Virus record (IMG/VR): IMGVR_UViG_3300025679_000006
DNA length: 64,000 nt
Strand: one strand, 5' to 3'
Source of the DNA: an uncultured virus (IMG/VR IMGVR_UViG_3300025679_000006)
Lineage: Duplodnaviria > Heunggongvirae > Uroviricota > Caudoviricetes
The translations under genes were made by a program, and so were the position numbers. Under the pieces are notes generated by a model, which searched no databases, was not told the DNA's origin, and saw nothing but the letters and a program-made list of their open reading frames with translations. Positions within the stretch are counted from its first letter, which is position 1; every line of letters begins with the position of its first letter. Shown piece by piece: positions 1,347-36,415 of this stretch.

Positions 1347-1502
1347 ATGAAACAAACCAAAGTAGAAAGAATCCAACTCAACCTTGCCCGGCAAATCGCA
1401 GTAGCACTCCGCGAGATGAACATCCAGGATGACGAACAAGCAATCGGTAATTTTATGCAAGAGGTCAACATCGAAGTCTCAACCATATTGGGGCTATCAT
1501 GA
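1347..1502 (+). CDS. Hypothetical protein
   Basis: GGAGGA RBS before ATG 1347; first gene of the + arm. Confidence 0.55.
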   Translation: MKQTKVERIQLNLARQIAVALREMNIQDDEQAIGNFMQEVNIEVSTILGLS

Positions 1503-1681
1503 GTGCCAAGTTCCCATACCAACTGTCAGAGAACGATTGCTTTGAAGTAGCCGGGGAAGGATACCAACACGTTAAGGGCGTGCGTTGGAGCCACAAGGAT
1601 AGGCAGTATGAGATCACAACAACAACCGGCAAGAAGGTTCTTTGCCCCATCATCAGGACACTGGAAGTAACTAACCGTTAA
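1499..1681 (+). CDS. Hypothetical protein
   Basis: ATGA overlap with previous gene. Confidence 0.5.
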   Translation: MSAKFPYQLSENDCFEVAGEGYQHVKGVRWSHKDRQYEITTTTGKKVLCPIIRTLEVTNR

Positions 1682-1839
1682 AAAGGGGAGGCCTTCGGGC
1701 CCTTGATCCAATGAAAAATGAGCGACCAATTAAAATATCAAATGGAACTGCAGGGCTCCTCCCTAACACGGTGGGTCTGGTCGCTAGCTTGCGCAAGCAA
1801 GTTGAGCTCTGCGGTTCCTCTTTATTTTTGGAGAAGCAT

Positions 1840-2346
1840 ATGATAGGACGCAGCCAATTAAGAAAGCTTTTAACCTATAACCCCCAAACCGGGGAGTTCT
1901 TCTGGATAAGACGTTCGGGTCAAAAGGCCGGGCATATCAAACCTCACTTTAACCCCGCCAAAGGTCCACGCCATATGATTAAGATTAAGGGGCGCAACTT
2001 TGAAGCACACCGCTTGGCCTTCCTTTATATGCTTGACTACATGCCATATCAGGTTGACCACAAAGATCGCGATAGCTTGAACAACTGCTGGTCAAACCTG
2101 CGAGTATGCAACCAAGCGCAGAACAATATGAATCGCGCCCCGCGCAAGACCAACAAATATGGGTGTAGTGGGATATTTTTTGACAGCTCCAGAAATCAAT
2201 GGAGGGCTGGAATTGGATTCAACAAAGAGCACATCCGTCTTGGTTCATTTGATTCCCTTGACGAAGCAATAGTTGCAAGAAAAGAAGCTGAAGAAAAGTT
2301 TTACGGAGAGTTTGCATTCAACCCACTAAAAGGAGAGCGACCATGA
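1840..2346 (+). CDS. HNH homing endonuclease with AP2 domain
   Basis: AHRLAF...VDHKDRDSLNNCWSNLR HNH_3 motif followed by AP2-like QWRAGI...LGSFDSLDEAIVARKEAE; GGAG RBS before ATG 1840. Confidence 0.9.
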   Translation: MIGRSQLRKLLTYNPQTGEFFWIRRSGQKAGHIKPHFNPAKGPRHMIKIKGRNFEAHRLAFLYMLDYMPYQVDHKDRDSLNNCWSNLRVCNQAQNNMNRAPRKTNKYGCSGIFFDSSRNQWRAGIGFNKEHIRLGSFDSLDEAIVARKEAEEKFYGEFAFNPLKGERP

Positions 2347-2984
2347 AAACAACCACACACCAATTCTACCTCAACATCGGCAGCACAGACGAAGAAGGCA
2401 ACTTCAACGGCAACCTGAACGAAGTCAACGGGCTTACGTTCGCCACCATATCGGACGCGCACCACGTGGCAATGATGTGCCTAGAGTCCTACTACCAAAT
2501 CAAGCAGTTGACCGGCAATTGTTTTTCCTATGATAACAAGGTTGTGTTTGAATCCCCAGAAATTGGGGAGCACGCCCAACGCCAACAACAGAAGCAGAAG
2601 TTGTTCGTGGCCAAGCGCGTCTCTCAAACCAACAAGGTCAACGAGCTCCCAATGCGCCACAGGTTGGGCGTAGTAGCCGACATCGAAGTATATCTCACCC
2701 GTTCTAAGGCCGAGTTCCGCGAATCTTATTCCAGCTCCATCCAAGGCGGGCGTTGGCAATTAGCATGGACACTCCCCAAGAACGTAAAGAATTATGACGT
2801 CTCCATTGGGGCCTTTGTCAACCAAGACGGCGCGCTTCAACGCAAGGAACTACTGCGTAAAATCAACTGGGCAATCAAAGAACCTTTAATCCCCAGCCAA
2901 GAAACGGCCCTCATCGCTCTTATTAAGGAAGCACAAAAGATCCTGAAGGAAAAGAACGAGGCGATCTATGAGATGGTGCGATAA
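2343..2984 (+). CDS. Hypothetical protein
   Basis: AGGAG RBS, 213-aa ORF coupled to neighbours. Confidence 0.7.
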   Translation: MKTTTHQFYLNIGSTDEEGNFNGNLNEVNGLTFATISDAHHVAMMCLESYYQIKQLTGNCFSYDNKVVFESPEIGEHAQRQQQKQKLFVAKRVSQTNKVNELPMRHRLGVVADIEVYLTRSKAEFRESYSSSIQGGRWQLAWTLPKNVKNYDVSIGAFVNQDGALQRKELLRKINWAIKEPLIPSQETALIALIKEAQKILKEKNEAIYEMVR

Positions 2985-3697
2985 TGAAACAATTCAAGAA
3001 CGAACAAGAGCGCGACAAGATAATCGAACGCATCCGGAAAATACTAGCGCTTGCCAAGGGTACGACGTTCGAGGGCGAGGCCTCAACAGCGATGGCCATG
3101 GCCCAGAGCTACATGAAACAATACGGCCTATCCTTAAGCGAAGTGGAGCTGAAAGAAGAACTCGAAGAGCCTATCCACAAAGACCCCATCAATCGTGAAG
3201 TGGGGAACCAAGAGAAGTGGGAGCTCGACATGTGTAAGGGCCTTGCCGTCTTGTTCGATTGCAAAATGATTCTCGTCCCAACCAAGCACGACCGGGGTTG
3301 GCAGGCAGCGTTCATTGGATTTGAGAAAGACACGCAGATGTGCAAGCTTGTCTTCCAAGTCCTTCTCGTCGGGGCTAAGAGTGCTGCGGGTAAACTCTAC
3401 CCCGGCGATATGAACGGCATTCGTTCCTTCCTTGCTGGACTTGGTCGGGGTATCCTTAACCGATGCTGGGAAGAGAAAGAGCAAGCTCGCACCGACGCCG
3501 GGGGAGTTGCTAACCGCTACGCCCTCGTTGTCCAGTCGAAGACGGACAAGGTGAAAACCTGGATCTCTACCAACCTTGAGCTGAAGACCGCGAAGTCAAG
3601 ATCCGGCGGGGCCAACATCAACCCGGTAGCGTACGCGTTGGGAGCACACCACGCCAAGAAGATGGACCTTTTAAACAAATCGAAACTAACAAACTAG
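2984..3697 (+). CDS. DUF2786-domain protein
   Basis: KIIERIRKILALA...EASTAMAMAQSYMKQYGL N-terminus. Confidence 0.8.
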   Translation: MKQFKNEQERDKIIERIRKILALAKGTTFEGEASTAMAMAQSYMKQYGLSLSEVELKEELEEPIHKDPINREVGNQEKWELDMCKGLAVLFDCKMILVPTKHDRGWQAAFIGFEKDTQMCKLVFQVLLVGAKSAAGKLYPGDMNGIRSFLAGLGRGILNRCWEEKEQARTDAGGVANRYALVVQSKTDKVKTWISTNLELKTAKSRSGGANINPVAYALGAHHAKKMDLLNKSKLTN

Positions 3698-3708
3698 GAG
3701 CGTGCACA

Positions 3709-3984
3709 ATGAAGGAATCAAAAGTAGAAGTTAAAGAAAGCGACAACGACAAGACAATCGAAGTAACAGTACGGTTCTGGGTGAACACCGTCGAAGTCCA
3801 CGAAGACTCAAGCAAGATTAACAAGCAGGCCTGTTGGGACTCCGGCGTTGTCTACATGAAAGTCAACCCGGACTTGGGCGTCAAGCACCACAGTAAGATG
3901 TTTGAAGGAATCAACAACATTCTCCCGGCAATCCAGCACTGTATCAAGGCGAACAAGCTCTTGATGGTCTCGAGGTCAGCATGA
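3709..3984 (+). CDS. Hypothetical protein
   Basis: GGAGCGTGC RBS motif at 3697. Confidence 0.7.
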   Translation: MKESKVEVKESDNDKTIEVTVRFWVNTVEVHEDSSKINKQACWDSGVVYMKVNPDLGVKHHSKMFEGINNILPAIQHCIKANKLLMVSRSA

Positions 3985-4226
3985 GTAAGTCCAAGCTTAT
4001 CCCCCACATAGTGAACATTAAGGTGCTGGTTTACCACACCCCGAGCGACCCGCACTCGGTCTTCTATTCAGTATGTGTGGGTAAGCTTAAACCAGCCGGG
4101 TTCTTTGCTAACCGGCTGTTCAAAAAGAACGTGATAGGCAAGACACACTGCACCTCTTTGATCTTCGCCCTCACACAAGACGCTGTGCTGGAAGCAATCT
4201 CTCCAGTGAAAGGAGTAATACGATGA
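3981..4226 (+). CDS. Hypothetical protein
   Basis: ATGA overlaps on both sides. Confidence 0.55.
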   Translation: MSKSKLIPHIVNIKVLVYHTPSDPHSVFYSVCVGKLKPAGFFANRLFKKNVIGKTHCTSLIFALTQDAVLEAISPVKGVIR

Positions 4227-4414
4227 GTCTCATATTGATTTCCATTTTGATTATCAGTTATTTTCTACCAACGATTGTGGCCCGGTGGCGCTACCACCAA
4301 AACACCCTCTCAATCACAGTCTTGAACGTCTTCTTGGGCTGGACGGTATTGGGGTGGATTGTCGCACTCGTGTGGGCCTGTACCGCGCAGAGGGGAATAT
4401 CAACATGCAAATGA
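4223..4414 (+). CDS. Superinfection immunity protein (T4 Imm-like)
   Basis: YFLPTIVA...NVFLGWTVLGWIVALVWA family signature. Confidence 0.9.
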   Translation: MSLILISILIISYFLPTIVARWRYHQNTLSITVLNVFLGWTVLGWIVALVWACTAQRGISTCK

Positions 4415-4683
4415 ATTTCACCTACACCGACCTAAGCTTCATCCGAGAGGTCGTCACAGCACACCGGACGCGCGAGGTTCAAGAGTTCGCCTATTTGATC
4501 CGCCATGCTGAACCCTTCGAAGCTGTTCAGGCAGAGGTCAAGGCCTACGAAGAAGAGACAAATCCGTTCTGCCCGGTTGGGATGTGTAACAATATCCTCC
4601 GCAAGATCCAAGTGGTCGAGGACGAAATCAAGCAAGCAATGGAAAACTCTGGGGTACCGTATGAAGTCCCATCCACTCGTTGA
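4405..4683 (+). CDS. Hypothetical protein
   Basis: GAGGGG RBS before ATG 4405. Confidence 0.55.
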   Translation: MQMNFTYTDLSFIREVVTAHRTREVQEFAYLIRHAEPFEAVQAEVKAYEEETNPFCPVGMCNNILRKIQVVEDEIKQAMENSGVPYEVPSTR

Positions 4684-4806
4684 GAAGCTCCGCCGAGAGA
4701 AACGTCAAAGATTTCTCAAGGCGTGCAAAGAATCGTTACCCGGTTGGGTAACAAAGAACCGTCCCCATCGTGGTGGGCGGAAGAAAGAAAACAAGGAGCG
4801 TGCGAA

Positions 4807-5433
4807 ATGAAGATTTTAATTTTAGCAGGACTAGTTCTAATGGCAATACCGATTCAAGCGAGGGCGCAAACAACGGAGTTCGACTATACCGGGGCAAAGG
4901 CAGGTTATGTTTCCGACGGCGGGTCAAGCCCAATATACAATTGGGGCGTAATGCCTTTTGGCAGGGAGACGCTCGTCACAGACTGGCAAGACGACTTCAC
5001 CGGGGAGGCAGCTCAGTTCACAATTACCGCCCCCACAGACATCGCGACTCTGGAGGCCAGCCTCAACTATGGGGCCCGAACGGAAGCTGGTGGGACGGGC
5101 ACTATAGACTACATGCTGTTCTCGGGTACGACCAATCCTTACAACTTCGACGGGACAGTAGGCCCCGGAATTATCCCACTCCAAAGTTCTCTTATCGAAC
5201 GGTCGGCTTCCATAACCCTTCCGGGCAACGGACAAACGAACGTAAGCGTACCCTTCGACGCGACCTTGCAGCCGGGCGATTACTGGGTAGCGATGGAAGG
5301 CCGGGGCGATAGTGCTTCTTCAACACAGGAGTTCACAACCGCAGCAGTGCCGGAACCGCCAACATGGATGTTGATGGCTTTTTCAATAGTGTTGTTGCTC
5401 GCGTTCAACTACAAAAAGCTGAGGCTTGCGTGA
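4807..5433 (+). CDS. Secreted protein with PEP-CTERM sorting signal
   Basis: Signal peptide MKILILAGLVLMAIPIQARA; C-terminal VPEPPTW, hydrophobic helix and basic tail KKLR; GGAG RBS at 4795. Confidence 0.85.
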   Translation: MKILILAGLVLMAIPIQARAQTTEFDYTGAKAGYVSDGGSSPIYNWGVMPFGRETLVTDWQDDFTGEAAQFTITAPTDIATLEASLNYGARTEAGGTGTIDYMLFSGTTNPYNFDGTVGPGIIPLQSSLIERSASITLPGNGQTNVSVPFDATLQPGDYWVAMEGRGDSASSTQEFTTAAVPEPPTWMLMAFSIVLLLAFNYKKLRLA

Positions 5434-5642
5434 AGAACCTTTTTAAAATTACCGCAAAAGATATTGAGATGATGGACAAGGTGGAGTTCTCAAAGTATGT
5501 CCACGATCTTGTCTGCTCATATCAACTCAACTCAACAAACCCCACACCCCCGGAAGCGTTCTACTACGAGGGTGTGCGGTTCGACAAAGATACACCCGAC
5601 CACTTATGGGAGTGGTTGGACAACCAATGGAGCAAGCAATGA
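5430..5642 (+). CDS. Hypothetical protein
   Basis: GTGA overlap with previous stop. Confidence 0.45.
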   Translation: MKNLFKITAKDIEMMDKVEFSKYVHDLVCSYQLNSTNPTPPEAFYYEGVRFDKDTPDHLWEWLDNQWSKQ

Positions 5643-5884
5643 AAATCAAAGATACAATATGGTTCAGCACAGGCCGGGGCGAATCAATCGGGATTGTGCT
5701 GGGGTACGAAGACCCCACCGGCAAGCCGAAGGCGTACATCGGGCTAGGGGACGGTAAAGACGCAGACCTCGACACCAAAATAATCTCGGAGTGGGGCGCA
5801 AGACTAGACCTTGAATTTATTATACCAATGTTAATTGACCATCTGGCTAAACCATATGACAACCGTCGAGAAGATAAAGTTTAA
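5639..5884 (+). CDS. Hypothetical phage protein
   Basis: GGAG RBS, ATGA overlap. Confidence 0.6.
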   Translation: MKIKDTIWFSTGRGESIGIVLGYEDPTGKPKAYIGLGDGKDADLDTKIISEWGARLDLEFIIPMLIDHLAKPYDNRREDKV

Positions 5885-5958
5885 GTTCTACTACCACGCG
5901 TACCGTTTCTTTAACGACGTCGCCAAGCATTGCTATGACAAGTATTGGGAGATATTAG

Positions 5959-7008
5959 ATGGGAGTTGAATACATTAAAGCGTTCCTGAACAAGCAAGGG
6001 CCTAACCGCTTCTCCCACGAGGAGACTTGCGCTTTAATAACCAAGGCGCAAGCCGGGGACATCAAAGCCCGCAACCTGCTCATTGAGTTCAACCTCAAGA
6101 TGGCGTTCCAAGTCTGCTTTAGGTACCAGTCCACGACGGGATTCTACCCCAGAATTGAGATGGAGGACTTAGTCCAGGAGTCCACCTTTGGGATGATCCG
6201 CGCAATTGAGCTCTTCGACATTTCGAAGGGCCACCAGTTTTCTACCTATGCGTATTTCTGGATACACCAAAGTCTCCGACGCTATATAGACAACACCAAG
6301 TATATGGTTCGCGTCCCGATCTTTGCAATCGCAATCCAAAAACAATATAAGAAGCTAACAATGGATATCGCCGGGAAAGACGAGGACTTCTACATTCGCT
6401 TGCTTGCCTTCGAGAACGACGTCAGCGTCTTGAGTATCACCAACTCCCTGCGCTTTCGCGGGGAAGTAACGTCCGTTGACCAAACCGTCAACGAAGACGG
6501 CGACCCTACAATTCAACTCGAGACGTTAACGTGGGAGCCCAACACAACCGACATCGACGCCTTTACGATCAAGAAGATGGCCCAGTTCTTGGGAGAACGC
6601 GACTTGAAAATTCTCACGCTCCGAATGGAGAACTACAGTCTCATGGCAATTGCCGAGATGTTGAAGATCTCCCGTGAGCGTGTGCGTCAAATAGAAGAGA
6701 GTTCAATCATCAAACTAAGAGCAATGGTTAACAAATCAACCAAGGAGGTATCAAATGGAGGGATCACAATTGATGGCGGTAAGGAAGTTCATAAAGAACA
6801 CTTTAAATCTGACGGAGGGAACGCAGGTAAGCGATTTTTCTCTCCGAATGGACTCGGGCAAGCTGATGGTGGAAGCCCGGATAACGTTGGAGGTAAACTA
6901 CGAGGAGCTGACAAGCCTCGCCAACGTCAAGGGCAACGGCAAAATAAAAGAGTCACCAACGCCAAAATTCAAAAACCGCGTCTCCGCAAGCCGGATGCCG
7001 AAAGCTGA
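5959..7008 (+). CDS. Sigma-70 family RNA polymerase sigma factor
   Basis: AQAGDIKARNLLIEFNL, EDLVQE...GMIRAIELFD...FSTYAYFWIHQ (region 2), SLMAIAEMLKISRERVRQIE (region 4). Confidence 0.9.
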   Translation: MGVEYIKAFLNKQGPNRFSHEETCALITKAQAGDIKARNLLIEFNLKMAFQVCFRYQSTTGFYPRIEMEDLVQESTFGMIRAIELFDISKGHQFSTYAYFWIHQSLRRYIDNTKYMVRVPIFAIAIQKQYKKLTMDIAGKDEDFYIRLLAFENDVSVLSITNSLRFRGEVTSVDQTVNEDGDPTIQLETLTWEPNTTDIDAFTIKKMAQFLGERDLKILTLRMENYSLMAIAEMLKISRERVRQIEESSIIKLRAMVNKSTKEVSNGGITIDGGKEVHKEHFKSDGGNAGKRFFSPNGLGQADGGSPDNVGGKLRGADKPRQRQGQRQNKRVTNAKIQKPRLRKPDAES

Positions 7009-7252
7009 GGGCTCCTTCAAGGCGAGCAGGAAGTTTGAGCAGACTGCCTCAGATTTCCATTGTATCCGCGTCATCTTGCGGGGCTGGAGAAAGTCAAACC
7101 GGCTAAACGAAAACGAAATAGAAGTCATGACTGGGTATGCGGGGAAGTTTTTCAACACAATGACCCCGGAAGAAAAAGCTGACTTCATGAATTTCTTTTT
7201 TGCAGTTCGCCAGCGCTTGGATGATACTCGCGCTTTATCAAAGAAACATTAA
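6755..7252 (+). CDS. Hypothetical protein overlapping the sigma 3' end
   Basis: AAGGAGG RBS directly upstream of ATG 6755. Confidence 0.65.
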   Translation: MEGSQLMAVRKFIKNTLNLTEGTQVSDFSLRMDSGKLMVEARITLEVNYEELTSLANVKGNGKIKESPTPKFKNRVSASRMPKAEGSFKASRKFEQTASDFHCIRVILRGWRKSNRLNENEIEVMTGYAGKFFNTMTPEEKADFMNFFFAVRQRLDDTRALSKKH

Positions 7253-7256
7253 TCCA

Positions 7257-7472
7257 ATGGACAACACAATTCTTGAAACTCGCGGGATGAATAAAACGCT
7301 TCGGTTACGTTTGGCGGGGAACGGTAACTTCGTTGTTGAAGACTGGGATATGCGTGAACAAATCTGGACTCCAGTCTTTGAATGCGAAAACTTTGAAGAG
7401 GCACTTCACGTGTACATCGACGAGGTTTGTGCGAGGGCCAACTTGCAATGGGGCCTCATGAAAAATAAATGA
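7257..7472 (+). CDS. Hypothetical protein
   Basis: ORF in operon order. Confidence 0.5.
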   Translation: MDNTILETRGMNKTLRLRLAGNGNFVVEDWDMREQIWTPVFECENFEEALHVYIDEVCARANLQWGLMKNK

Positions 7473-7490
7473 GATTTCTTTTGCAATTCG

Positions 7491-7520
7491 TTTATAAATC
7501 GGTTAGAATAGTGTACAATC
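7491..7520 (+). promoter_or_regulatory. Candidate sigma-70-like promoter
   Basis: TTTATA-17 nt-TACAAT in intergenic DNA; GTGTACAATC recurs at 15731-15740 in another intergenic gap. Confidence 0.4.
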
Positions 7521-7596
7521 AAAGGTGGAGCAAACGCGATGAAGCCTAACAAGAACCAAAGAGCGTGCAATAGTGAAATCAATTCCAAAAAATTAA

Positions 7597-7690
7597 GAGC
7601 AGGTGGGTCGCCCGTCACACGGCGGTGCCCGCACGCTCCATTTCACGTCTCTTTGAGGACGCTGGAATGCCCACCTGCTCGTTTTAATTT
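7597..7690 (+). ncRNA. Structured intergenic RNA candidate (three-way junction)
   Basis: Perfect 11-bp closing stem 7597-7607/7670-7680, two inner hairpins, T-rich tail; contains GCACGCTCC at 7631-7639. Confidence 0.5.
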
Positions 7691-7702
7691 AGAGGAGGCC
7701 AC

Positions 7703-7942
7703 ATGTTTAGCTTAAGTCAAAAACAAAAGTTAGCCGAGGGAGTTGAGAAGCTCCTTCTCGACATCGGACATCCAGAAATGCCAACCGCCCGGCCCCAGTT
7801 CACGCTCAACGTTGTGGGCAAGGAGCCTTGGTCTTGGGCAGAGATTCACCCCAACTGGACGTTCGACGAAACAAACACGCCCAATATAAATCCCCACAAC
7901 GAAGAACAAGAAAGACACAGCAGGAGCAACGATGGAACCTGA
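7703..7942 (+). CDS. Hypothetical phage protein
   Basis: GGAGG RBS. Confidence 0.7.
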   Translation: MFSLSQKQKLAEGVEKLLLDIGHPEMPTARPQFTLNVVGKEPWSWAEIHPNWTFDETNTPNINPHNEEQERHSRSNDGT

Positions 7943-8966
7943 TCTTCTTCAACGGCCCGACATGATGTTCTACGCGAAGTTGGCGCAACGCAAGGTGGGG
8001 TACGTTGCCGGTCAAATGGAATTGACCTCAACCTGTGGGCAGAAGTGTGCTGCTTGTGATAGTTGGCGCGCACACAAGAAGGGCGAAATTACCGGGACGT
8101 TCTCCTACGAAAAAATTAACGACATCTTCCAGCAGCTCAATAAGATCCCAACGTTCGAGCACTTGTCAATGACCGGCGGAGACCCGCAGCACTGGGAAGA
8201 CCCAACCTGCAACGCCAACCTCGACACAATCTTGACGTGGCTGGCCCCAACAGCGAAGTTTTCCCTGCAGGTCAACACCGCATTAATCGTAGAACCGAAC
8301 ATTCCCCTCTGGCAAAAATCTCTCTCTAGGATACGAGTCTCTCTTGACGGCGTAAACCAGGCCACATACCGCATCATGCGGGGCGATGACCGCGACCCTA
8401 GGGAAATCCTCGACCGGATGGACAGACTCGCCCATCCCGGTCTTGCAACCAACACGTGCGTAACCGACTACAACATTGACGAGGTACCCCAGATCATCGA
8501 GGCTCTCAACAAGTTGAAGAACCCCCCGCGTAAAGCGATGTTCTTGGCGGTTATGGACTTTAAAATAGGCGACAAGTTCTGGGAGAAGTACGCCCGCTTG
8601 AAAGATATCCCTTCCCACCACGTTGAGACTTCCTTTCAAGAAGACGTCCAGGGCGTTCGAGAGTTCGTTGTCTCCCCGGAGGCAGCAGATATCCCTTGCT
8701 ACGTCGGCGGGATAACGTTCCACTTAAAGTGCAACGGCGACATGTACCCTTGCTGTTTAGTGGGCGGGGAAGCAATCAAGACCCGCGAAGAAATGAAAAT
8801 AGGGAGTGTGCATGAAAACACCATCGAGCAAATTCAACGCTCTTACCGGCTTTTCCCGCATTATAAAAGCTGTAATAGCCCGTGTCAAAAGGTCTGTCAG
8901 TGGAAGCAACTCCAAATCAACCGGCTGGCCCACGCAGCTAGCAAAGTAAAGTTGACGATGCCATGA
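7932..8966 (+). CDS. Radical SAM protein with SPASM/twitch-like C-terminus
   Basis: CGQKCAAC (CxxxCxxC), TGGDP, RVSLDG, C-terminal GDMYPCC and further cysteines. Confidence 0.9.
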   Translation: MEPDLLQRPDMMFYAKLAQRKVGYVAGQMELTSTCGQKCAACDSWRAHKKGEITGTFSYEKINDIFQQLNKIPTFEHLSMTGGDPQHWEDPTCNANLDTILTWLAPTAKFSLQVNTALIVEPNIPLWQKSLSRIRVSLDGVNQATYRIMRGDDRDPREILDRMDRLAHPGLATNTCVTDYNIDEVPQIIEALNKLKNPPRKAMFLAVMDFKIGDKFWEKYARLKDIPSHHVETSFQEDVQGVREFVVSPEAADIPCYVGGITFHLKCNGDMYPCCLVGGEAIKTREEMKIGSVHENTIEQIQRSYRLFPHYKSCNSPCQKVCQWKQLQINRLAHAASKVKLTMP

Positions 8967-9082
8967 GCGATTACTATCAATTCTGTGGGTATTGCGATAT
9001 GTTTACCGACCACACGGCCCTTGACGAAACAATAAAAAAGTGCCAGTGCGACAGGTGCGGAACGACCCACGATGTCGCTTAA
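8963..9082 (+). CDS. 39-aa Cys-rich (zinc-ribbon-like) peptide not in the ORF track
   Basis: MSDYYQFCGYCDMFTDHTALDETIKKCQCDRCGTTHDVA; ATGA overlap with radical SAM stop. Confidence 0.55.
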   Translation: MSDYYQFCGYCDMFTDHTALDETIKKCQCDRCGTTHDVA

Positions 9083-9320
9083 GTGGTGCATGACATGTAA
9101 AGAGGACTCGATTGCAACGAAGGTTCGAGTTCGAAAAAGGGACGGAGTAAAGACCGTCTTTGAATATTGCATCAACAAGAATCCGTCCTGCAGATATAAA
9201 GAACAATGGGAGGTAGTCTCAAGTGGCAAAAATAGTATTGAAAAGAAAAGCAGTACCGCCCCCGAGCAGCTCTACTTTGAATTCTGCCGGGCCCGTTGCG
9301 TTCCAGCTTACGGGGTTTAA
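9072..9320 (+). CDS. Small Cys-containing hypothetical protein
   Basis: CMTC...CINKNPSC; overlaps neighbours. Confidence 0.45.
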   Translation: MSLKWCMTCKEDSIATKVRVRKRDGVKTVFEYCINKNPSCRYKEQWEVVSSGKNSIEKKSSTAPEQLYFEFCRARCVPAYGV

Positions 9321-10035
9321 GGAGTTCGAAGACGCGGTACGAATCAATTCTGATAGAAACTTTATGGGTATTCTCCGCGACTTTTACGAGAAGACCTTTG
9401 GAGTTTTCCCGCCATGGACAGAGCACCCAGTAGAACTGGTGCGCACAAAGTTAACCTACGAACTTTTGAAGCGCGACTATGAGAAGGCCGGTGTCCCTAT
9501 GCCAGCGAACGTTAAGCAAAACTGGGAGGCCTCAAGGGATTTTAATATATCAAAAATGACAACGGGAATGAAGGGTCTTGTCGAAGCAAATATTTCTGCA
9601 GAAGAGAAAACAAATGCTCGCAAGTCCCAGAGATCTCAAAACGAAAAGGAGCCCGTAATGGCAACCAAATCCAAAGCAGCAGAATCTAAGAAGGAACGTA
9701 TCTGCGATACGTTTATCCGTTTGTACCGTGAAAATTCCAAAGAGAAAAGAACCGACGACCAACTCGCGAAGGAAATGCAAAAGTGCCACCCCGACAGTAT
9801 TAAGAAGTATGACGGGGCATATATGAACCAAGTCCGTGGGCATTACAATCGCGGAGTTGGGCCCTTCGCCAAGGCAAAGCCCGGTACCCCGGCAGTCGGC
9901 TACGACGCCAAGGGCGTTGTCTTGAACGGCCACGGCACCAACGGCAAGATGAAAAAAGCTCCAGTCCTCGCCAAGAAAGTTGTAGCGATGGCGAAGAAAA
10001 AAATTATACTGAAAAAAGTTCCAGTAGCAGCTTAA
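9223..10035 (+). CDS. Basic Lys/Ala-rich hypothetical protein (possible DNA binding)
   Basis: GGAGG RBS before GTG; histone-like C-terminal tail. Confidence 0.65.
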   Translation: MAKIVLKRKAVPPPSSSTLNSAGPVAFQLTGFKEFEDAVRINSDRNFMGILRDFYEKTFGVFPPWTEHPVELVRTKLTYELLKRDYEKAGVPMPANVKQNWEASRDFNISKMTTGMKGLVEANISAEEKTNARKSQRSQNEKEPVMATKSKAAESKKERICDTFIRLYRENSKEKRTDDQLAKEMQKCHPDSIKKYDGAYMNQVRGHYNRGVGPFAKAKPGTPAVGYDAKGVVLNGHGTNGKMKKAPVLAKKVVAMAKKKIILKKVPVAA

Positions 10036-10042
10036 GACTGTT

Positions 10043-10116
10043 CGCGGGGTAGTTTAACAGGATAAAATCGGTCTCGCTTGAGGCCGGGATTGGGGGTTCG
10101 AGTCCCTCCCCCGCAA
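10043..10116 (+). tRNA. tRNA-like element with initiator-type acceptor stem and non-canonical anticodon loop
   Basis: CGCGGGG/CCCCGCA-A acceptor (C1:A72), TAG...GG D arm, GGGGG-TTCGAGT-CCCTC T arm; CGGTC/GGCCG stem encloses 8 nt (TCGCTTGA); no encoded CCA. Confidence 0.65.
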
Positions 10117-10149
10117 TTTTGAGCGCCAACGGAAGGCCGATGGTAGGGA

Positions 10150-13230: not shown

Positions 13231-14193
13231 ATGGAATTCATGGTTGAACATAGCTCTCCGAGCAACCCTTTTCACGGACAAATCTCTTGTCGCTACATGG
13301 ACTTGATTACTGGGGAAACGAAAATAAGAACTCAAGCTTTCCTGCACGACCGGGAAGATCGAGCGGAGTGGTATGTTGACCGCGTTAAAGAGCAGATGAA
13401 AAGAGAGATTACCCAAGAGCTCGGGCAACAAGCAGTTGAGATACAGGAGCACCGACAAATGGCGACACTCAATAACCACACGCACACCATGGTAACATAC
13501 GCGACACCAGAACAACACTGGCAGGATGCGGTTCAATATCAACGAATGTATCAACACGGCGTGTTCGGGACGGCGTTGTCGGACACAACCGCTCAGATGT
13601 ACACGCAAGTCCAGATGTCTACCGCACTACCGATTCATTTTATGGGTATAGATCCTTGTGGGCCCGTCGAAAGTGAAATTGAAATTGAATTCCCCCTCGG
13701 CAAGCGCATGTTGACAATGCGCAAGAAGGCGGAGAACGGCAAGGTTGTTGTTACGATGGAAGACATTGGCAAAGCCATTACCGACGGGAAAGAACAGTTC
13801 ATGTTTTCTATCCACGCCAAGAAAGCCGAAAACCGGGCGGAGAATCTACTCCAGACAATGATCTCCGAGATCGACTTCAGGAACTACAAGGAGAAAGGGT
13901 ACTTCACCTGCCAAGAAAACGGCAAGCTGTACCGCATCTACAAAGACAAGAGCAAGTGGGTGGACTTGTGGGAGGCCAAAGAAGTAAAGGCCGAGTTAAT
14001 CTGGCAGCCGAAGAACCGGCTCTGTACCCACACCGAGAGTCGCGACTTGCCGGACGCGGACGAAGCGTTGTCAAAGTTGATGTTGATTCGTTCGGGCCGG
14101 ATAATCGAACACGCGAATCTGCATCCGGTGAAAGGAACGCGGGGTCTGGAAATGAAACAGCTTAAACACGAGAACGAATTAATTTTAATCTAA
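13231..14193 (+). CDS. Hypothetical protein
   Basis: 320-aa ORF abutting neighbours. Confidence 0.7.
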   Translation: MEFMVEHSSPSNPFHGQISCRYMDLITGETKIRTQAFLHDREDRAEWYVDRVKEQMKREITQELGQQAVEIQEHRQMATLNNHTHTMVTYATPEQHWQDAVQYQRMYQHGVFGTALSDTTAQMYTQVQMSTALPIHFMGIDPCGPVESEIEIEFPLGKRMLTMRKKAENGKVVVTMEDIGKAITDGKEQFMFSIHAKKAENRAENLLQTMISEIDFRNYKEKGYFTCQENGKLYRIYKDKSKWVDLWEAKEVKAELIWQPKNRLCTHTESRDLPDADEALSKLMLIRSGRIIEHANLHPVKGTRGLEMKQLKHENELILI

Positions 14194-14203
14194 GGAGCGT
14201 GCG

Positions 14204-15193
14204 ATGGTTGATTTTAAGAAGATGTTGGCGGACAAAAAATTCTACTCCTACGAGCGGGACGGAATTACCCAAGGCTTAATCGGGATGTGGTTGGAGTGCC
14301 GGCAGAAGGCTAAGTATTTTATTCAAGGCTACTCCGGCAAGGGTTCGTCTTTCGCTCTCACCAACGGTACAATAGGCCACGGAGTTCTTCAATATGTCTA
14401 CGACGGCTACCGGACGGGGAAGATTAAAACAATCCCCACTCGTCTGGAAGTCAAGAAATACACAGCGGTGGTGGAGAAGATCTTTATGAAGGAGAATCCG
14501 AGGGCAAGCAAGAGAACGCTTGAAGATCTTGACCTTGCGTTGATGTATGCCGAAGCGTTGATGCCTCTTTACTTTCAACGCTGGAAGGACGACTTCAAGA
14601 AGTACCAGTGGCTAAAGGTGGAGTCCGCCTTCAAGCTTCCCTTCACTACTTCGGACGGCAGGAAAACTTTTATCCGGGGCAAGATGGACGGGGCCTTTAA
14701 GAGCAACGGGAACTGGCTTTTTGAAAGCAAGTTCAAAAGTATAATTAACGACAACGACTTGGTGGACACGCTTGGGTTCGATACGCAGTGCATGGTTTAC
14801 CTTTGGGCCCTGATGACCGGCTACAAACTTAACCCGCAAGGCGTCTTGTACAACGTAGTACGCAGGCCCGGCCTTAAGATTAAAAAAGGCGAGGCCCTTG
14901 TTCAGTTTTCAAAGCGCGTCCAGGAGGATATCGAAGCCCGGCCCGAGTGGTATTTCTATCGCTACGAGATCTTCATCGACAAGGACGATATCAAGAAGTG
15001 GACAACAACTCTTGACGCTATGGTCATGGAGTTCATGGACTGGTGCGACGGTACCGCAGCCACCTATCGTAATACCGGAGCGTGCGTAACGAAGTATGGC
15101 AGGTGTTGGGGCCTGACCACATGCGCGGACGGCAACTTTCACACAATGGAAAAACGCCCTACCGTTTTCCGAGAACTAGCGGAGGATCTATGA
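14204..15193 (+). CDS. PD-(D/E)XK nuclease (RecB/Cas4-like phage exonuclease)
   Basis: C...GTIGH, GKMDG, FESK, QCMVY, C-terminal C..C..C cluster. Confidence 0.85.
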   Translation: MVDFKKMLADKKFYSYERDGITQGLIGMWLECRQKAKYFIQGYSGKGSSFALTNGTIGHGVLQYVYDGYRTGKIKTIPTRLEVKKYTAVVEKIFMKENPRASKRTLEDLDLALMYAEALMPLYFQRWKDDFKKYQWLKVESAFKLPFTTSDGRKTFIRGKMDGAFKSNGNWLFESKFKSIINDNDLVDTLGFDTQCMVYLWALMTGYKLNPQGVLYNVVRRPGLKIKKGEALVQFSKRVQEDIEARPEWYFYRYEIFIDKDDIKKWTTTLDAMVMEFMDWCDGTAATYRNTGACVTKYGRCWGLTTCADGNFHTMEKRPTVFRELAEDL

Positions 15194-15684: not shown

Positions 15685-15844
15685 TTGCGATTTTTTTAGC
15701 CCATCCTTGGCTTTCCACATTTTTAATCTGGTGTACAATCTCTGCGCTCGAGAATATGGTAATGTGGATTTGCAAGGGCGAGAATATCTGGAGAAACAAG
15801 AAGTTAGATAATAAACCGAAGCAATAAAAAAGGGAGCGTGCACA

Positions 15845-16171
15845 ATGATTGAGAAAGAAAAAGGAATTAAAATAAGGAAGCCTCAGATAAGTAAAGAGAA
15901 CATAGACGCCCACAAAGGGGAATTGTTTGTTTTTGAAACAATATTAAAAAATCCTATATTCGTAAGAACGGAGAATATCCAGGCGGGGTGGCATATGTGG
16001 CCCATGGTGAAGAATGGTCTTTTTAGTATAAGTTTTAAGACCGTAGATATGGCAAGCCCCGAAGTGGTAAACGTTAAGGACTTAATTAAGTTTTTTAGCA
16101 CACTCGTTAAAGACTCTCTTGAGTGTAGGAAATATCTTAACATACCAAAGAAGAAGGAGGCCCTTAAATGA
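15845..16171 (+). CDS. Hypothetical protein
   Basis: GGAGCGTGC RBS motif at 15833. Confidence 0.6.
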   Translation: MIEKEKGIKIRKPQISKENIDAHKGELFVFETILKNPIFVRTENIQAGWHMWPMVKNGLFSISFKTVDMASPEVVNVKDLIKFFSTLVKDSLECRKYLNIPKKKEALK

Positions 16172-31992: not shown

Positions 31993-32463
31993 TTACGTTG
32001 CTGACGAACTGGAACTGCTCGAGCTTGATCGACTGCTGCTCGATGAACTGGAGCAAGACGAGCTTGATAGACTCGAAGAGCTCGAAGAACTGCTCGATGA
32101 CCGGCTCGAAGAACTGCTCGACACCGAAGAGCTGGAGCTGGAAGAAGAGCTAATTGGGTTGTCAACTTTAATGTGGAATCTTTCTCCCCATCCAGACCAC
32201 GCGCCTATAACGACAAACGCCTGAGCGGAGTACTTCCCGCATTGGTTAAAGTCGCCGTCCTGAATTCTAAAGAGAATCCAATCGGTACTACCGTTGTAAT
32301 TCGTGGGAGTGGCTACCCGTTGTATCTTTGTTCCGTCCGGGCGTTGTATAAATACCTCCGCCGAAGAAGCCTGACTAACGTCGATCCCGCAGTCCACATA
32401 AAATATCGTGTTCTCCTCACCGACATAATGAGGTTCATCACATTGTCTGAAATCGTCGTCCAT
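31993..32463 (-). CDS. BppU-N-like small structural protein with poly-Ser C-terminal tag
   Basis: RPDGT...GDFNQCGKY..Q..V Ig-like pattern; ends RSSSSSSSSSAT. Confidence 0.6.
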   Translation of the reverse strand: MDDDFRQCDEPHYVGEENTIFYVDCGIDVSQASSAEVFIQRPDGTKIQRVATPTNYNGSTDWILFRIQDGDFNQCGKYSAQAFVVIGAWSGWGERFHIKVDNPISSSSSSSSSVSSSSSSRSSSSSSSSSSLSSSSCSSSSSSSRSSSSSSSSSAT

Positions 32464-32464
32464 A

Positions 32465-34225
32465 TCAATTCCTTTCTATTAAACCAATCGGTAAATAAGA
32501 CTTCTTGAAATCTGTACCCAGCACCCTGCGGGGCGGGGACTCAACATTAGCGGGCCTGTCCACGGCTACTGGAAGAGGAGAACGCCGGGCGTCAATCCTC
32601 GTGACAAATCTAAACGACGACGAACTACTTGACAAAGACGACGAGCTGCTCGACTGAGAAGAGCTGCTACTAGATCTTGAAGAGCTACTGCTCGGCAAAG
32701 AGCTACTGCTAGAGCTCGAAGAAGAACTTTGACTAGAGCTACTCGAGCTAGAAGACAAAGATGAACTTGATGATGAACTGCTTGATGATCTAGAGCTCGA
32801 CGAGCTGCTTGACGATCGACTAGACGATGAGCTGCTCGATGATCGACTAGACGATGAGCTGCTCGATGATTTAGAACTTGAAGAACTGCTCGACGACTTA
32901 GAGCTCGATGAACTGCTAGAAGATCGGCTAGACGAAGAACTGCTTGACGATCGACTAGACGATGAGCTGCTCGATGATCTGGAGCTCGAACTACAGGAGC
33001 TCGACGAGCTTTTGGAACTTGACGAGCAAGAAGAACTTGAACTTTTGGATGAACAAGAACTCGATGATGACGAACTTCTGGACGAACAAGAAGAACAGGA
33101 TGAGCTCGAACTCCTAGAAGAGCAGCTGGACGATGAGCTTCGACAGCTTGAACTGGAGCTAGACGACTTCGATGAACAGCTCGAACTAGAAGACCGACAA
33201 CTCGAGGATGAGCAGCTTGAACTTGACGATCGGCAACTCGAACTCGATGATCGACAACTACAAGACGAACTGCTGGATGATCGGCAGCTGGATGATGAAC
33301 TACTCGAAGATCGACAACTCGACGAAGAACAGCATGAACTCGATGAGCTACTCGACCGGCTCGAAGAACATGAAGAACTGCTAGACCGGCTCGAGGAGCA
33401 TGAAGAAGAACTTCCCCCTGTGAACGTCAGAACAATAAGTCCTTGACCACCTGATCGGGCCCCACCACTTCTGAACCCTCCGCATCCGCCTCCATATTTA
33501 GCACCATTTCCACCAAGAACAGCTCCCTTACCACCACCGCCACCACCGCCACCAGTACCGTGTGAAGCATCAAATTCTGTACCAGTGCTTCCATCCGAAC
33601 CAGTAGTCTGACCTGTAAAATTACCACCGTTTCCGCCCGCGCCACCGCCATTTGTGGATGTTCCAGCTACACCGCCAGTTCCCTGAGATGCTGGTTTTCC
33701 ACCGTGAGCACCATTACCAGCTCCACCACCACCGCCACCATATGCCACACCCCCGGCCATATATCCATTACCACCATATCCACCTGCTTGTTGAGGACCG
33801 CCAGCACCGCCACCACCCGCTTGACAATATCCTTGTCTACTATTACCAGCTCCTCCACTAAATTTTGTTGTTCCAACTCCGACATAACTACCTTCCGTAC
33901 CGCCACCATAATATCCTCCATGGCCATTACCTTGATTCCCTCCTCCAATCGCTAGGATAGTCGAGGTGTTTTTGAAATAGGTATTACCGCCGGCTTGACC
34001 GGCATAAGTTGCACTAGATCCGCCGATACCAACAGCATAAGAATAGCCTGCCCCAGCGGTAACTGTCAAATTTACAATACCGCAATACTGACCACCACCT
34101 CCACTAGTTCCTGTACCAATAGCAGAACTGCCTCCACCGATACACTGGACCTTGGTCAGAAGCGTAACCCCCACTGGGATTGTGTAACTATGGGTTCCTG
34201 TCGTATGTAAAAATACTTGACTCAT
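32465..34225 (-). CDS. Glycine-rich-domain tail protein with ~270-aa Ser/Cys/Arg tract
   Basis: YTIPVGVT...IGGG and GGQGLIVL boundaries of a phage Gly-rich domain, then poly-Ser. Confidence 0.8.
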   Translation of the reverse strand: MSQVFLHTTGTHSYTIPVGVTLLTKVQCIGGGSSAIGTGTSGGGGQYCGIVNLTVTAGAGYSYAVGIGGSSATYAGQAGGNTYFKNTSTILAIGGGNQGNGHGGYYGGGTEGSYVGVGTTKFSGGAGNSRQGYCQAGGGGAGGPQQAGGYGGNGYMAGGVAYGGGGGGAGNGAHGGKPASQGTGGVAGTSTNGGGAGGNGGNFTGQTTGSDGSTGTEFDASHGTGGGGGGGGKGAVLGGNGAKYGGGCGGFRSGGARSGGQGLIVLTFTGGSSSSCSSSRSSSSSCSSSRSSSSSSSCCSSSSCRSSSSSSSSCRSSSSSSCSCRSSSSSCRSSSSSCSSSSCRSSSSSCSSKSSSSSSSCRSSSSSCSSRSSSSSCSSCSSRSSSSSSSCSSKSSSSSCSSSSKSSSSSCSSSSRSSSSSSSSRSSSSSSSSRSSSSSSSSKSSSSSSSSKSSSSSSSSRSSSSSSSSRSSSSSSSSRSSSSSSSSSSLSSSSSSSSQSSSSSSSSSSLPSSSSSRSSSSSSQSSSSSSLSSSSSSFRFVTRIDARRSPLPVAVDRPANVESPPRRVLGTDFKKSYLPIGLIERN

Positions 34226-34683: not shown

Positions 34684-35312
34684 TTTATAATCTCCCCGTC
34701 CAATATGGCAATTAAGTTTTTGTTCTCCAAAATTTGACGTTTGATTTCTTCCGTCAAATTGTGGCATGTTCCGAAAATAATAGTCTTCTCGTTGATACTC
34801 CCAAAATTGTAAAGGAACGTGCTAATCTGCAATCCCTTAAACGGTAGACCAAGATCCCCGGCAAAATACCTTTTCATCTCAACCAGCACTGACTTGTCCA
34901 GATCGTAGGCCTCGATACTCTGCCACTTCTTAACCATAGACGCCAACAGGACATCTATCCCGCGCCCAGCTTCCACTACCAGAATCCTATCCGCAAAGTG
35001 GCATACCGTCTTAAGCTTCTGGAAGGACGGCACTTTGTAGTCGTGGACTAGCTTAAAGAACAAAGGAAGATTGCTACACATCGTGCTGTCGTCGTGCCTC
35101 TTGGATTGATAATAATTCAAGAAGTCGTCATGGTCCATTGTGAGGCACTTGCACACCCCGTGCGTGTACGTATCGATGTCCCACATCCTCCCGCTGTTCG
35201 TCATATAGTGGTCTTTGAGATCGAGCGGAATCATGCTATTGTTAATCGAAATTCCGAAAAGCTGAATCTGCCTAATCTCCTGTTCAGTAAAGACGTGCTT
35301 TGGATTAAACAT
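34680..35312 (-). CDS. Class I SAM methyltransferase-like protein
   Basis: ILVVEAGRG ... IEAYDLD resemble motifs I and II. Confidence 0.45.
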   Translation of the reverse strand: MFNPKHVFTEQEIRQIQLFGISINNSMIPLDLKDHYMTNSGRMWDIDTYTHGVCKCLTMDHDDFLNYYQSKRHDDSTMCSNLPLFFKLVHDYKVPSFQKLKTVCHFADRILVVEAGRGIDVLLASMVKKWQSIEAYDLDKSVLVEMKRYFAGDLGLPFKGLQISTFLYNFGSINEKTIIFGTCHNLTEEIKRQILENKNLIAILDGEIIK

Positions 35313-35318
35313 ATTCTC

Positions 35319-36413
35319 CTATGGCTGATAGATGCTTTGAACCGGGTTCTGATAATTAGACCAGCCTATCTCACTATTCCTAAAAGACTTTAAGTCAAAC
35401 GACGCGCTGCTCGAAGAGCTGGAAGAGCTGCTTCGGGAAGAGCTTGAAGAACTGCAAGAGCTTGACGACCTCGAGCTGGACGAGCTTGACCGACTCGAAC
35501 AACTGGAGCTACTCGACCTGCAAGACGAGCTCGAGCTGGAACTCCGACAAGAGGACGAACTGCTCGAAGAGCTTGACCGACTCGAAGAAGAACTGATACT
35601 TCTTGAGGAGCTGGATGAACAAGAGCTCGACTTAGAACTACTGCTGCTCGAAGACCGGCAGGAAGAAGAACTGCTGGACGAGCTACGCGAGCTAGAGCTT
35701 GACGAAACGCTACTGCTTGAAGAGCTCGACGCAAAATTGTGTGAACTCGAAGAGCTGCTATTGCTGGATGAACTAGAACTTCTCGACGAAGAACTGCGCG
35801 AACAAGAAGAGCTCGATCGACAAGAACTCGAAGAACTAAGAGAGCTTGACTTGGAGCTGGAAGAGCTTGAACAGCTGGAAGACTTAGAAGAAGAGCTCGA
35901 ACAGCTGGAAGAAGAAGACGCTGAAGCGAACACGACGCTCCATAAGTCCGACTTAAGGGTAACGGGGTTGGGGTTAATTGAGAAAGAAGACGAAGAGCTT
36001 CTTGAGCTGGAAGAGCTGCTCCGACAAGAAGAGCTGGAAGAGCTACTGCTCTTTGAAGAAGAACTGGACGACACTGACTGAAAGCTAACCGCCCACAAGT
36101 CCGTCTCTAACATTGTTACCCTAGCCCATCCTATCGAACTGTTACCGACAACGATCTGCCAGTCCCACGCCGTGACGGTGTCAATTAATATGACTTGGTC
36201 GTCTTGTACCGTTCCAGTTGACTCGACTCCTAATGCCCCGCCAGTGATGAACATCCTCCAATAATTACCAGGATTAAGTATGTCCTGAAAGATGGGCTCT
36301 GCCTGTGCGGCCGAAGCGGTGATCGCATAACTCAACGAACCATTGACCATTTTCACGGCATACTTATTTCCCGGCACCGATCTGTCTTGGAGAACGTATT
36401 GATTGTAGATCAT
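35319..36413 (-). CDS. Ser-rich structural protein
   Basis: ~110-aa N-domain, repeated DLW.V.F.S motif, long Ser/Cys/Arg tracts. Confidence 0.75.
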   Translation of the reverse strand: MIYNQYVLQDRSVPGNKYAVKMVNGSLSYAITASAAQAEPIFQDILNPGNYWRMFITGGALGVESTGTVQDDQVILIDTVTAWDWQIVVGNSSIGWARVTMLETDLWAVSFQSVSSSSSSKSSSSSSSSCRSSSSSSRSSSSSFSINPNPVTLKSDLWSVVFASASSSSSCSSSSSKSSSCSSSSSSKSSSLSSSSSCRSSSSCSRSSSSRSSSSSSNSSSSSSHNFASSSSSSSVSSSSSSRSSSSSSSSCRSSSSSSSKSSSCSSSSSRSISSSSSRSSSSSSSSSCRSSSSSSSCRSSSSSCSSRSSSSSSRSSSSCSSSSSSRSSSSSSSSSASFDLKSFRNSEIGWSNYQNPVQSIYQP

Positions 36414-36415
36414 GG

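Follow-up and report, generated by a model that had tools for sequence, protein, structure and literature searches.

Does an RNA that folds within the leader of an operon in a phage act only on the genes behind it, or can it also reach scattered genes whose ribosome-binding regions its exposed strand complements? This question is raised by positions 7597–7690 of a 64,000-nt stretch of DNA (here called the window) from an uncultured virus of the Caudoviricetes (IMG/VR record IMGVR_UViG_3300025679_000006), where a first-pass annotation had proposed a phage small RNA or switch that silences or co-ordinates a set of genes by occluding a shared extension of the Shine–Dalgarno (SD) sequence. We find that the element is, with little room for doubt, a real, conserved structured RNA, and the proposal holds to that extent, the stems being compensated in a related phage contig (L006) and in a second copy within the window; its regulatory half stands less securely, since the setting of the element, in an operon's 5′ leader and overlapped by a conserved upstream open reading frame (uORF), makes a purely cis-acting role a serious rival. 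Among antisense RNAs that are cut out of the leader of the very operon under their control, the classic example is C4 of phages P1 and P7. The explanation we prefer, to which we give an even chance, is a C4-like antisense RNA embedded in the operon's 5′ leader, with another fold topology and no detectable sequence homology with C4. Both the second copy and the likeness to C4 are absent from the first-pass annotation.

Positions 7597–7680 fold as a three-way junction in which a closing stem (P1) encloses two hairpins (P2 and P3), bearing out the perfect 11-bp closing stem and the two hairpins that had been read from the sequence. The minimum free energy of 7597–7690 is −44.1 kcal/mol against a shuffle mean of −28.1 kcal/mol (s.d. 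3.3; z = −4.80), a value that none of 200 shuffles equalled; the reverse strand folds worse (z = −3.82). As P3 abuts the 3′ strand of P1, the two helices can stack to ~23 bp. Between P2 and P3 runs a junction whose 9-nt candidate seed, GCACGCTCC, is largely unpaired, with a mean unpaired probability of 0.76 in the core fold and 0.51 in the whole leader; the core-fold values for L006 and for the second copy are 0.62 and 0.71. The promoter-like TTTATA-17-TACAAT and the T-rich run GTTTTAATTT, described at the outset as flanking the structure, are both present, and a second promoter-like site overlaps the first (Table 1). Rfam 15 yields no family match for the element, either at gathering thresholds or at E ≤ 10, and a gathering-threshold scan of the whole window gave a tRNA only.

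The operon behind the element encodes a radical-SAM/SPASM enzyme, the relatives of which comprise 78 proteins (aligned as A1) and DNA loci from 28 metagenome, 15 viral and 8 genome-contig records. One of these, the 4482-nt metagenome contig L006, encodes a radical-SAM protein 56% identical to that of the window and is the only fetched relative that also has a homologue of the 90-aa gene preceding the element (43% identity over 60 aa). The L006 leader, between this homologue and the radical-SAM gene, aligns with the leader of the window; because L006 lacks the 79-aa gene that follows the element in the window, its leader runs straight into the radical-SAM gene. Common to the two leaders are a −10 box (TATAAT in L006, TAGAAT at 7504–7509 in the window), the ORF start ATGAAGCC, the junction segment GCACGCTC, the tip of P3, and GTTTTAATTTAG followed by an SD, and the L006 segment GGGGCGTGCAA corresponds to AGAGCGTGCAA of the window. 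The L006 stems differ in sequence yet pair fully, with a P1 of 18 bp, and the fold again surpasses all of 200 shuffles (z = −6.44). A covariance model built from the first window copy alone (R1) finds L006:2225–2367 with 28.7 bits (E = 4e-4).

The same model finds a second copy in the window itself, at 1708–1842, with 20.2 bits (E = 0.058 over 307 kb, 0.013 over 68 kb). This copy adopts the same type of fold (z = −4.44; 0 of 200 shuffles as good), with a weak P2 and an ACACGG loop motif in common with the first, and it lies directly before a gene for an HNH endonuclease, with whose SD its U tract can pair. The HNH family match starts only at residue 40 of a longer frame (1711–2346), which indicates that the second copy is an upstream leader rather than coding sequence. 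A UUCG hairpin occupies 1690–1702, just 5′ of this copy.

When the three copies are aligned (A5), pairing holds in 96.1% of cells and both sides have changed at 14 of 30 pairs (9 of 11 of them in P1), a compensation that 0 of 500 shuffles reach; slid controls pair at 44–53%. Beyond the three-way junction itself, a further helix joins the 5′ flank to the seed, and here the covariation backs an earlier suggestion that 7561–7568 could pair in cis with the junction. In the first copy 7561–7568 pairs with 7631–7638 (8 bp; 3 of 5000 shuffled flanks as good), in L006 2230–2239 pairs with 2298–2307 (10 bp including one G–U; 1 of 5000), and in the second copy 1721–1728 pairs with 1778–1785 (8 bp; 89 of 5000). 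Relative to the first copy, two adjacent positions of the second show double compensations (U–A to A–U and G–C to C–G), and L006 shows an A–U to G–U change. The partners are spaced exactly 62 nt apart in both the first window copy and L006, despite diverged intervening sequence, and 50 nt apart in the second copy. That the partners changed together in the second copy argues that the cis pairing is under selection, and we consider it very likely that pairing between the 5′ flank and the junction has been selected.

This cis helix and P1 are incompatible in one nested fold. Enforcing the helix gives −54.1 kcal/mol against −56.5 for the three-way junction in the first window copy, whereas the corresponding values, set against the free fold, are −45.5 and −57.5 in L006 (a gap of 12 kcal/mol) and −34.6 and −44.1 in the second copy (a gap of 9.5). 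On these energies a thermodynamic switch is plausible for the window copy only; a pseudoknot, or a kinetic or precursor state, is a plausible arrangement that would fit all three.

What may link the element to other genes is the seed. As the first-pass annotation noted, GCACGCTCC is the exact complement of GGAGCGTGC, a motif at four gene starts, and it is the sole exact minus-strand match in the window. There are six exact matches in all against 0.38 expected, a count attained by 0 of 100 shuffles; if one mismatch is tolerated, the window shows no enrichment (13 against 10.6 expected, with 28 of 100 shuffles attaining 13). Four of the five plus-strand copies sit 1–3 nt 5′ of an ATG, and the frames so opened encode 91, 208, 329 and 108 aa. 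The same 9-mer marks two gene starts in L006, 1 nt 5′ of the ATGs at 3416 and 3634 of small genes after the radical-SAM gene; nothing in the window is homologous to these tagged L006 genes, so in each of the two phages the tag marks the starts of a different, unrelated set of genes. The window seed matches the gene-start tags over 9 nt and its own cis partner, the 5′ mimic, over 8, and the L006 seed forms 10 Watson–Crick bp with one tagged gene start against 9 plus one G–U with its own cis partner; a seed that fits the tags as well as or better than the mimic would favour displacement of the mimic by a target. We put trans action on the tagged gene starts at an even call or a shade below.

A control for the tag consisted of viral contigs picked for the same gene-start 15-mers (39 + 34 = 73 loci, ~743 kb). 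None of these loci matches the three-sequence covariance model (R2), only L163 (G+C content 65%) has two gene-start-like copies, and one locus has an antisense copy, inside a coding region; among what was searched, the tag and the antisense junction together are thus specific to this lineage. A group of small viral contigs (L147, L148, L150, L152, L157, L159–L161 and L169–L171) has one conserved gene start with AAGGAGCGTGCGATG, which shows that unrelated phages can use the 9-mer simply as an SD with its spacer. In the related phage contigs L007, L013 and L034, TGAGGTGCT occurs three times ≤16 nt upstream of ORF ATGs and may be another lineage-specific extension of the ribosome-binding site (RBS). 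The 208-aa product of tagged gene 4807–5433 shows a weak PEP-CTERM-like match at its C terminus (E = 6e-4, below the cut-off), which may hint at a host envelope sorting system. A third stem, at 14083–14182, was rejected: this 11-bp long-range stem, which ends in TTTTAATCTAAGGAGCGTGC just before tagged gene 14204, has a fold no more stable than that of shuffled sequence (z = −0.87) and occupies the tail of a coding region. We also rejected a minus-strand ORF (7618–7406) behind the reverse-strand GGAGCGTGC, which has no counterpart in L006.

Wider searches added no copy. R2 found no match over 8 whole viral records (viral twins for L008 and L007), nothing further over 100 loci, and no further copy over the window with filters off. 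Viral scans returned no match to a P1-stem pattern, one to the junction plus U tract (L048, a chance match inside a gene, discarded) and 86 loci, about the chance number, with a mimic–N58–62–junction pattern, of which none matched R1 (run on L057–L119) or R2 (run on L057–L086 and L120–L142); aligning the upstream 90-aa protein in the viral scan found none. In eight close radical-SAM relatives that we inspected, another gene directly precedes the radical-SAM gene. One 408-aa radical-SAM homologue (P0002) was ruled out as a fused leader: it carries an exact internal duplication of ~64 residues, probably an assembly artefact.

Several quite different functions could be proposed for such a locus. 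The 58-codon frame that had been flagged as a caveat is real: it spans the structure from end to end, stops 13 nt beyond the ATG of the 79-aa gene, has a good SD 8 nt before its ATG, keeps its start ATGAAGCC in L006, and is one of three such frames, open across the whole element in each copy (chance by mononucleotide shuffle 0.08, 0.04 and 0.086). Were this a gene for a small protein, with the RNA structure incidental or tuning its translation, the peptide might be expected to be what is kept, yet it is not conserved: a tblastn search of L006 with the 58-aa product is negative at E ≤ 1, the product matches no Pfam or PHROG family, and the second-copy frame, which lacks a well-placed SD, runs in-frame into the HNH gene, with homology only from residue 40. 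Moreover, GCACGCTC lies in frame 2 of the window uORF (7631 − 7539 = 92) and in frame 0 of the L006 uORF (2300 − 2204 = 96). With conserved blocks read in different frames in the two phages, the sequence identifies the element as an RNA and not a protein; translation through the leader may matter, the peptide probably not, and we regard a small-protein gene as very improbable. Hardly more credible, and if anything less so, is a site at the level of DNA, with GGAGCGTGC as the non-palindromic binding site of a phage DNA-binding protein that accepts either orientation and finds an inverted pair in the leader. The motif does occur on both strands, and the inverted pair keeps its 62-bp spacing in two phages; against this, the plus-strand copies include the SD and stand 1–3 nt before start codons, a position that speaks for RNA, the minus-strand copy is surrounded by compensated stems, as expected for RNA, and the partners in the second copy have changed so as to stay complementary, not identical. 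An ordinary intergenic terminator or RNase III-type site, made of stacked P1 and P3 and devoid of seed function, would suit the intergenic position, the long GC-containing stem followed by a U tract in all three copies, and the summed lengths of P1 and P3 (23 bp in the window, 25 in L006, 22 in the second copy). A terminator of that kind would, however, have a 62-nt branched domain as the 'loop' of an 84-nt element, and a plus-strand terminator scan (loops of 3–8 nt) does not list this site; neither device accounts for the conservation of the junction, for its covarying 5′ partner at a fixed 62 nt or for the motif at gene starts, and we think this explanation improbable.

The contender that presses hardest is a leader working purely in cis, as a pseudoknotted attenuator or riboswitch-like switch for the downstream operon only (the 79-aa and radical-SAM genes, or the HNH gene for the second copy). 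Pairing of flank and junction would compete with, or lock, a terminator formed by P1 and the U tract, translation of the uORF would open the structure and couple it to the next gene, and the likeness to the tags would be incidental. Such a leader makes good sense of the cis helix, the feature with direct covariation, and of the U-rich tract that follows P1 in all three copies; in the nearly isoenergetic enforced fold of the window copy, moreover, the 3′ strand of P1 pairs with the SD region of the uORF, whose start is conserved in the window first copy and L006 together with a usable SD, whose frame stays open despite frame-shifting indels, and whose stop in L006 overlaps the radical-SAM ATG (ATGA). 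Left unexplained by it are six gene starts in two phages with the exact complement of the junction, and a junction that matches these gene starts as well as or better than its cis partner; the near-isoenergetic alternative is itself not conserved, given the gaps in L006 and the second copy, and no riboswitch or leader family of Rfam matches. Weighing the two sides, we find a purely cis leader unlikely, at the upper end of what that word covers.

A number of observations count against a C4-like, trans-acting RNA. Alignment A5 was fitted to the structure of the model, and three copies from two phages offer few covariation events; conservation of the junction could be owed to the cis helix by itself, and an ORF with a conserved start and a good SD over the whole structure points to a cis or translational role. 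When 1473 candidate starts are ranked by duplex energy, only 14204 and 4807 of the four tagged genes enter the top ten for the first seed, a list that includes spurious GC-rich sites. For the second seed, the candidate gene start at 2343 falls outside the top ten, and of the non-leader copies of GAGCGACC the remaining four lie away from gene starts. The gene next to the element (ATG 7703) is a non-target, 7691–7705 offering only ~4 nt of complementarity to the seed; in phage P1 the target of C4 lies immediately downstream, whereas here it would be several dispersed genes. Among the 31 radical-SAM loci whose upstream sequence was checked, the motifs occur only in L006. Neither C4 family of Rfam is recognized at E ≤ 10: RF01695 has no match on window 7400–7800, on 1600–1900 or on L006, and RF03163 (c4-a1b1) none on any of the three copies, in searches for which phage P1 served as positive control (68.8 bits for RF01695, 51 bits for RF03163); in the reverse direction, R2 has no match on the c4 RNA of phage P1.

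If the C4-like reading is right, transcription would start at the promoter-like site near 7481–7509 and the RNA would fold as the three-way junction, its long P1 and U-rich tract probably ending or pausing part of the transcripts; alternatively, processing at P1 would free the RNA. The 8–10 nt of junction between P2 and P3 would be the seed, which in the leader would pair with the near-copy of the target ~30 nt before P1 and so be masked or stabilized in the precursor, a counterpart of a1/b1 in phage P1. Once freed, the seed would pair with GGAGCGUGC over the SD of four dispersed genes (3709, 4807, 14204 and 15845) and change their translation, most likely by blocking ribosome entry; the second copy would bring another pair of seed and mimic to its place before the HNH gene. 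Such a scheme predicts that a discrete RNA is set free, that it pairs in trans and represses, and that transcripts terminate at P1. One may go further and imagine an 'addressing code' in which each leader RNA combines a junction seed, a cis decoy and a matching tag in the SD extension of chosen genes, the two copies defining separate translational regulons, with decoy and uORF translation timing the release of the seed: a multi-target, programmable relative of C4 outside Proteobacteria-type phages. This extension is speculative, and we think it unlikely.

Table 1 Positions of the leader elements, gene-start motifs and principal neighbouring genes in the window
Feature	Position	Strand	Remarks
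Second copy, 5′ mimic AGCGACCA	1721–1728	+	
Second copy, P1	1744–1758 with 1804–1818	+	15 bp
Second copy, junction seed TGGTCGCT	1778–1785	+	
Second copy, P3	1786–1803	+	
Second copy, U tract	1819–1829	+	followed by GGAG SD and HNH ATG 1840
HNH endonuclease gene	1840–2346	+	phrog_99, E = 3e-54; Pfam HNH_3; free-standing homing type
Candidate target AGCGACCA of second seed	2336–2343	+	start of gene 2343–2984 (GGAGAGCGACCATG); complementary to second seed; weak candidate
GGAGCGTGC copy	3697–3705	+	start of gene 3709–3984
GGAGCGTGC copy	4795–4803	+	start of gene 4807–5433
Sigma factor gene	5959–7008	+	sigma-70 family, regions 2 and 4
Promoter-like TTGCAA-17-TAGAAT	7481–7509	+	TAGAAT 7504–7509 aligns with TATAAT −10 of L006
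Promoter-like TTTATA-17-TACAAT	7491–7519	+	overlaps 7481–7509 site; from first-pass annotation
uORF, 58 codons	7539–7715	+	SD GGTGGAG at 7524–7530, 8 nt before ATG
First copy, 5′ mimic of gene-start motif, GAGCGTGC	7561–7568	+	8 bp with junction
First copy, P1 5′ strand	7597–7607	+	pairs with 7670–7680, 11 bp, no mismatch
First copy, P2 hairpin	7610–7628	+	from the fold
First copy, junction J2/3	7629–7639	+	7629–7638 unpaired (10 nt); seed GCACGCTCC at 7631–7639
First copy, P3 hairpin	7639–7669	+	abuts P1 3′ strand
First copy, P1 3′ strand	7670–7680	+	pairs with 7597–7607
First copy, U-rich tract GTTTTAATTT, then SD GAGGAGG of 79-aa gene (ATG 7703)	7681–7702	+	GTTTTAATTTAG identical in L006
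Radical-SAM/SPASM enzyme gene	7932–8966	+	
GGAGCGTGC copy	14194–14202	+	start of PD-(D/E)XK exonuclease gene 14204–15193
GGAGCGTGC copy	15077–15085	+	within exonuclease gene, no clear gene start
GGAGCGTGC copy	15833–15841	+	start of gene 15845–16171

The phage that carries these elements is uncultivated, and peat and soil metagenome runs hold pieces identical to the window. Contigs from four DNA runs over 1500–8200 are likewise identical and therefore offer no population variants. Judged by sequence, the window is a novel phage with no DNA match in GenBank phages: blastn of 6500–9500 and tblastn of its radical-SAM protein both find no match there, and the nearest record (G001) is an identical fragment of the window from 46083 on, the leader element lying outside it. 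The plus strand carries genes from 1 to ~33 kb, which encode an SNF2 helicase, ThyX and a DNA polymerase of family A as well as the proteins of Table 1, the exonuclease among them. The gap that holds the element is 230 nt long and separates the 90-aa gene (end 7472) from the 79-aa gene (start 7703), which overlaps the start of the radical-SAM gene. Matches to the sigma factor (5959–7008) in GenBank phages are distant (≤31% identity), the closest being in Microcystis phage MaAM05 (29%). Homologues of the radical-SAM/SPASM enzyme with 32–65% identity are carried by many contigs, each about 48 kb long, from uncultivated phages (78 proteins; L005–L047); in the window the gene is preceded by the lineage-specific 79-aa gene and followed by small Cys-rich ORFs (8963–9082 and 9072–9320). 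A tRNA-Ser (anticodon TGA) at 10042–10117 was called by both ARAGORN and Rfam and is ARAGORN's sole call. Short repeated words like GAAGAACTGCTCGA cluster at about 32000–33500, 35000–36500 and 40000–41000, which suggests repeat-rich, probably coiled-coil, coding sequence common to several genes.

To our knowledge, few phage-encoded regulatory RNAs are understood, and the present one seems to be aimed at several dispersed genes by way of the 9-nt SD extension that they have in common. If it does act in trans, then C4-type control would be a recurring design and not the peculiarity of one family, phages could build small translational regulons by tagging the RBS of chosen genes, and a compact, re-targetable RNA scaffold would exist; if only the cis pairing is functional, the element would still be a new pseudoknotted leader motif.

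Two classes of RNA resemble the element in part. Some regulatory RNAs are released from 5′ leaders or riboswitches and also act in trans; the present leader, with its terminator-like stem, could similarly yield a short RNA with an exposed seed, but no ligand-binding family matches it. In T4-type phages, hairpins sequester the RBS before free-standing homing endonuclease genes, a setting like that of the second copy, with its place directly before the HNH gene and a U tract able to pair with that gene's SD; unlike those hairpins, the element is a branched junction with a covarying long-range partner, and it also precedes a radical-SAM operon, which is not mobile.

The fuller likeness is to C4 of phages P1 and P7 (Rfam RF01695 and RF03163; clan CL00128). 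Hartmann reportedly showed in 1995 that C4 is processed by RNase P. The GenBank record of phage P1 gives the order promoters P2c4 and P1c4, a1 (48255–61), b1 (48269–76), c4 RNA (48343–48419), a2 (48423–29), b2 (48452–59) and icd (48470), and the fold of the 77-nt c4 RNA is a three-way junction, closed by a stem of 17 bp, in which a′ forms the 7-nt junction and b′ lies in the loop of the second hairpin. By one published account C4 has three stem-loops, is processed by RNase P at the 5′ end of the P1 stem, and binds its target through loops a′ and b′, the latter occluding the ribosome-binding site (PMC5320573); passages of two others give its role in repressing ant (PMC8198154) and tabulate c4 and c4-a1b1 motifs for Proteobacteria and phages (PMC2864571). 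Like C4, the element lies in the leader of its own operon just after a promoter (the immI operon in phage P1), folds in all three copies as a three-way junction of 77–84 nt with a long closing stem and two hairpins, offers a single-stranded junction as seed (a′ in phage P1 c4, GCACGCTCC here), repeats the target farther 5′ in that leader (a1/b1 there, the covarying 5′ mimic here), and matches a target that overlaps the SD region of genes, at four gene starts in the window and two in L006. It departs from C4 in placing the seed between P2 and P3, where C4 has it between P3 and P1, in showing one seed where C4 has two (a′ and b′; inspection of the loop sequences by eye, with no systematic search made, revealed no second), in having P1 followed by a U tract instead of a CCA-like end, in being crossed by an upstream ORF, in having as tagged L006 genes the two after the radical-SAM gene, and in coming from an uncultivated phage of peat and soil metagenomes. 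As membership of the Rfam families fails and the topology differs, we file the element as working like C4 and not as a member of its family: the C4 logic of a cis target copy, a junction seed and an RBS target, carried by an unrelated sequence and a different fold.

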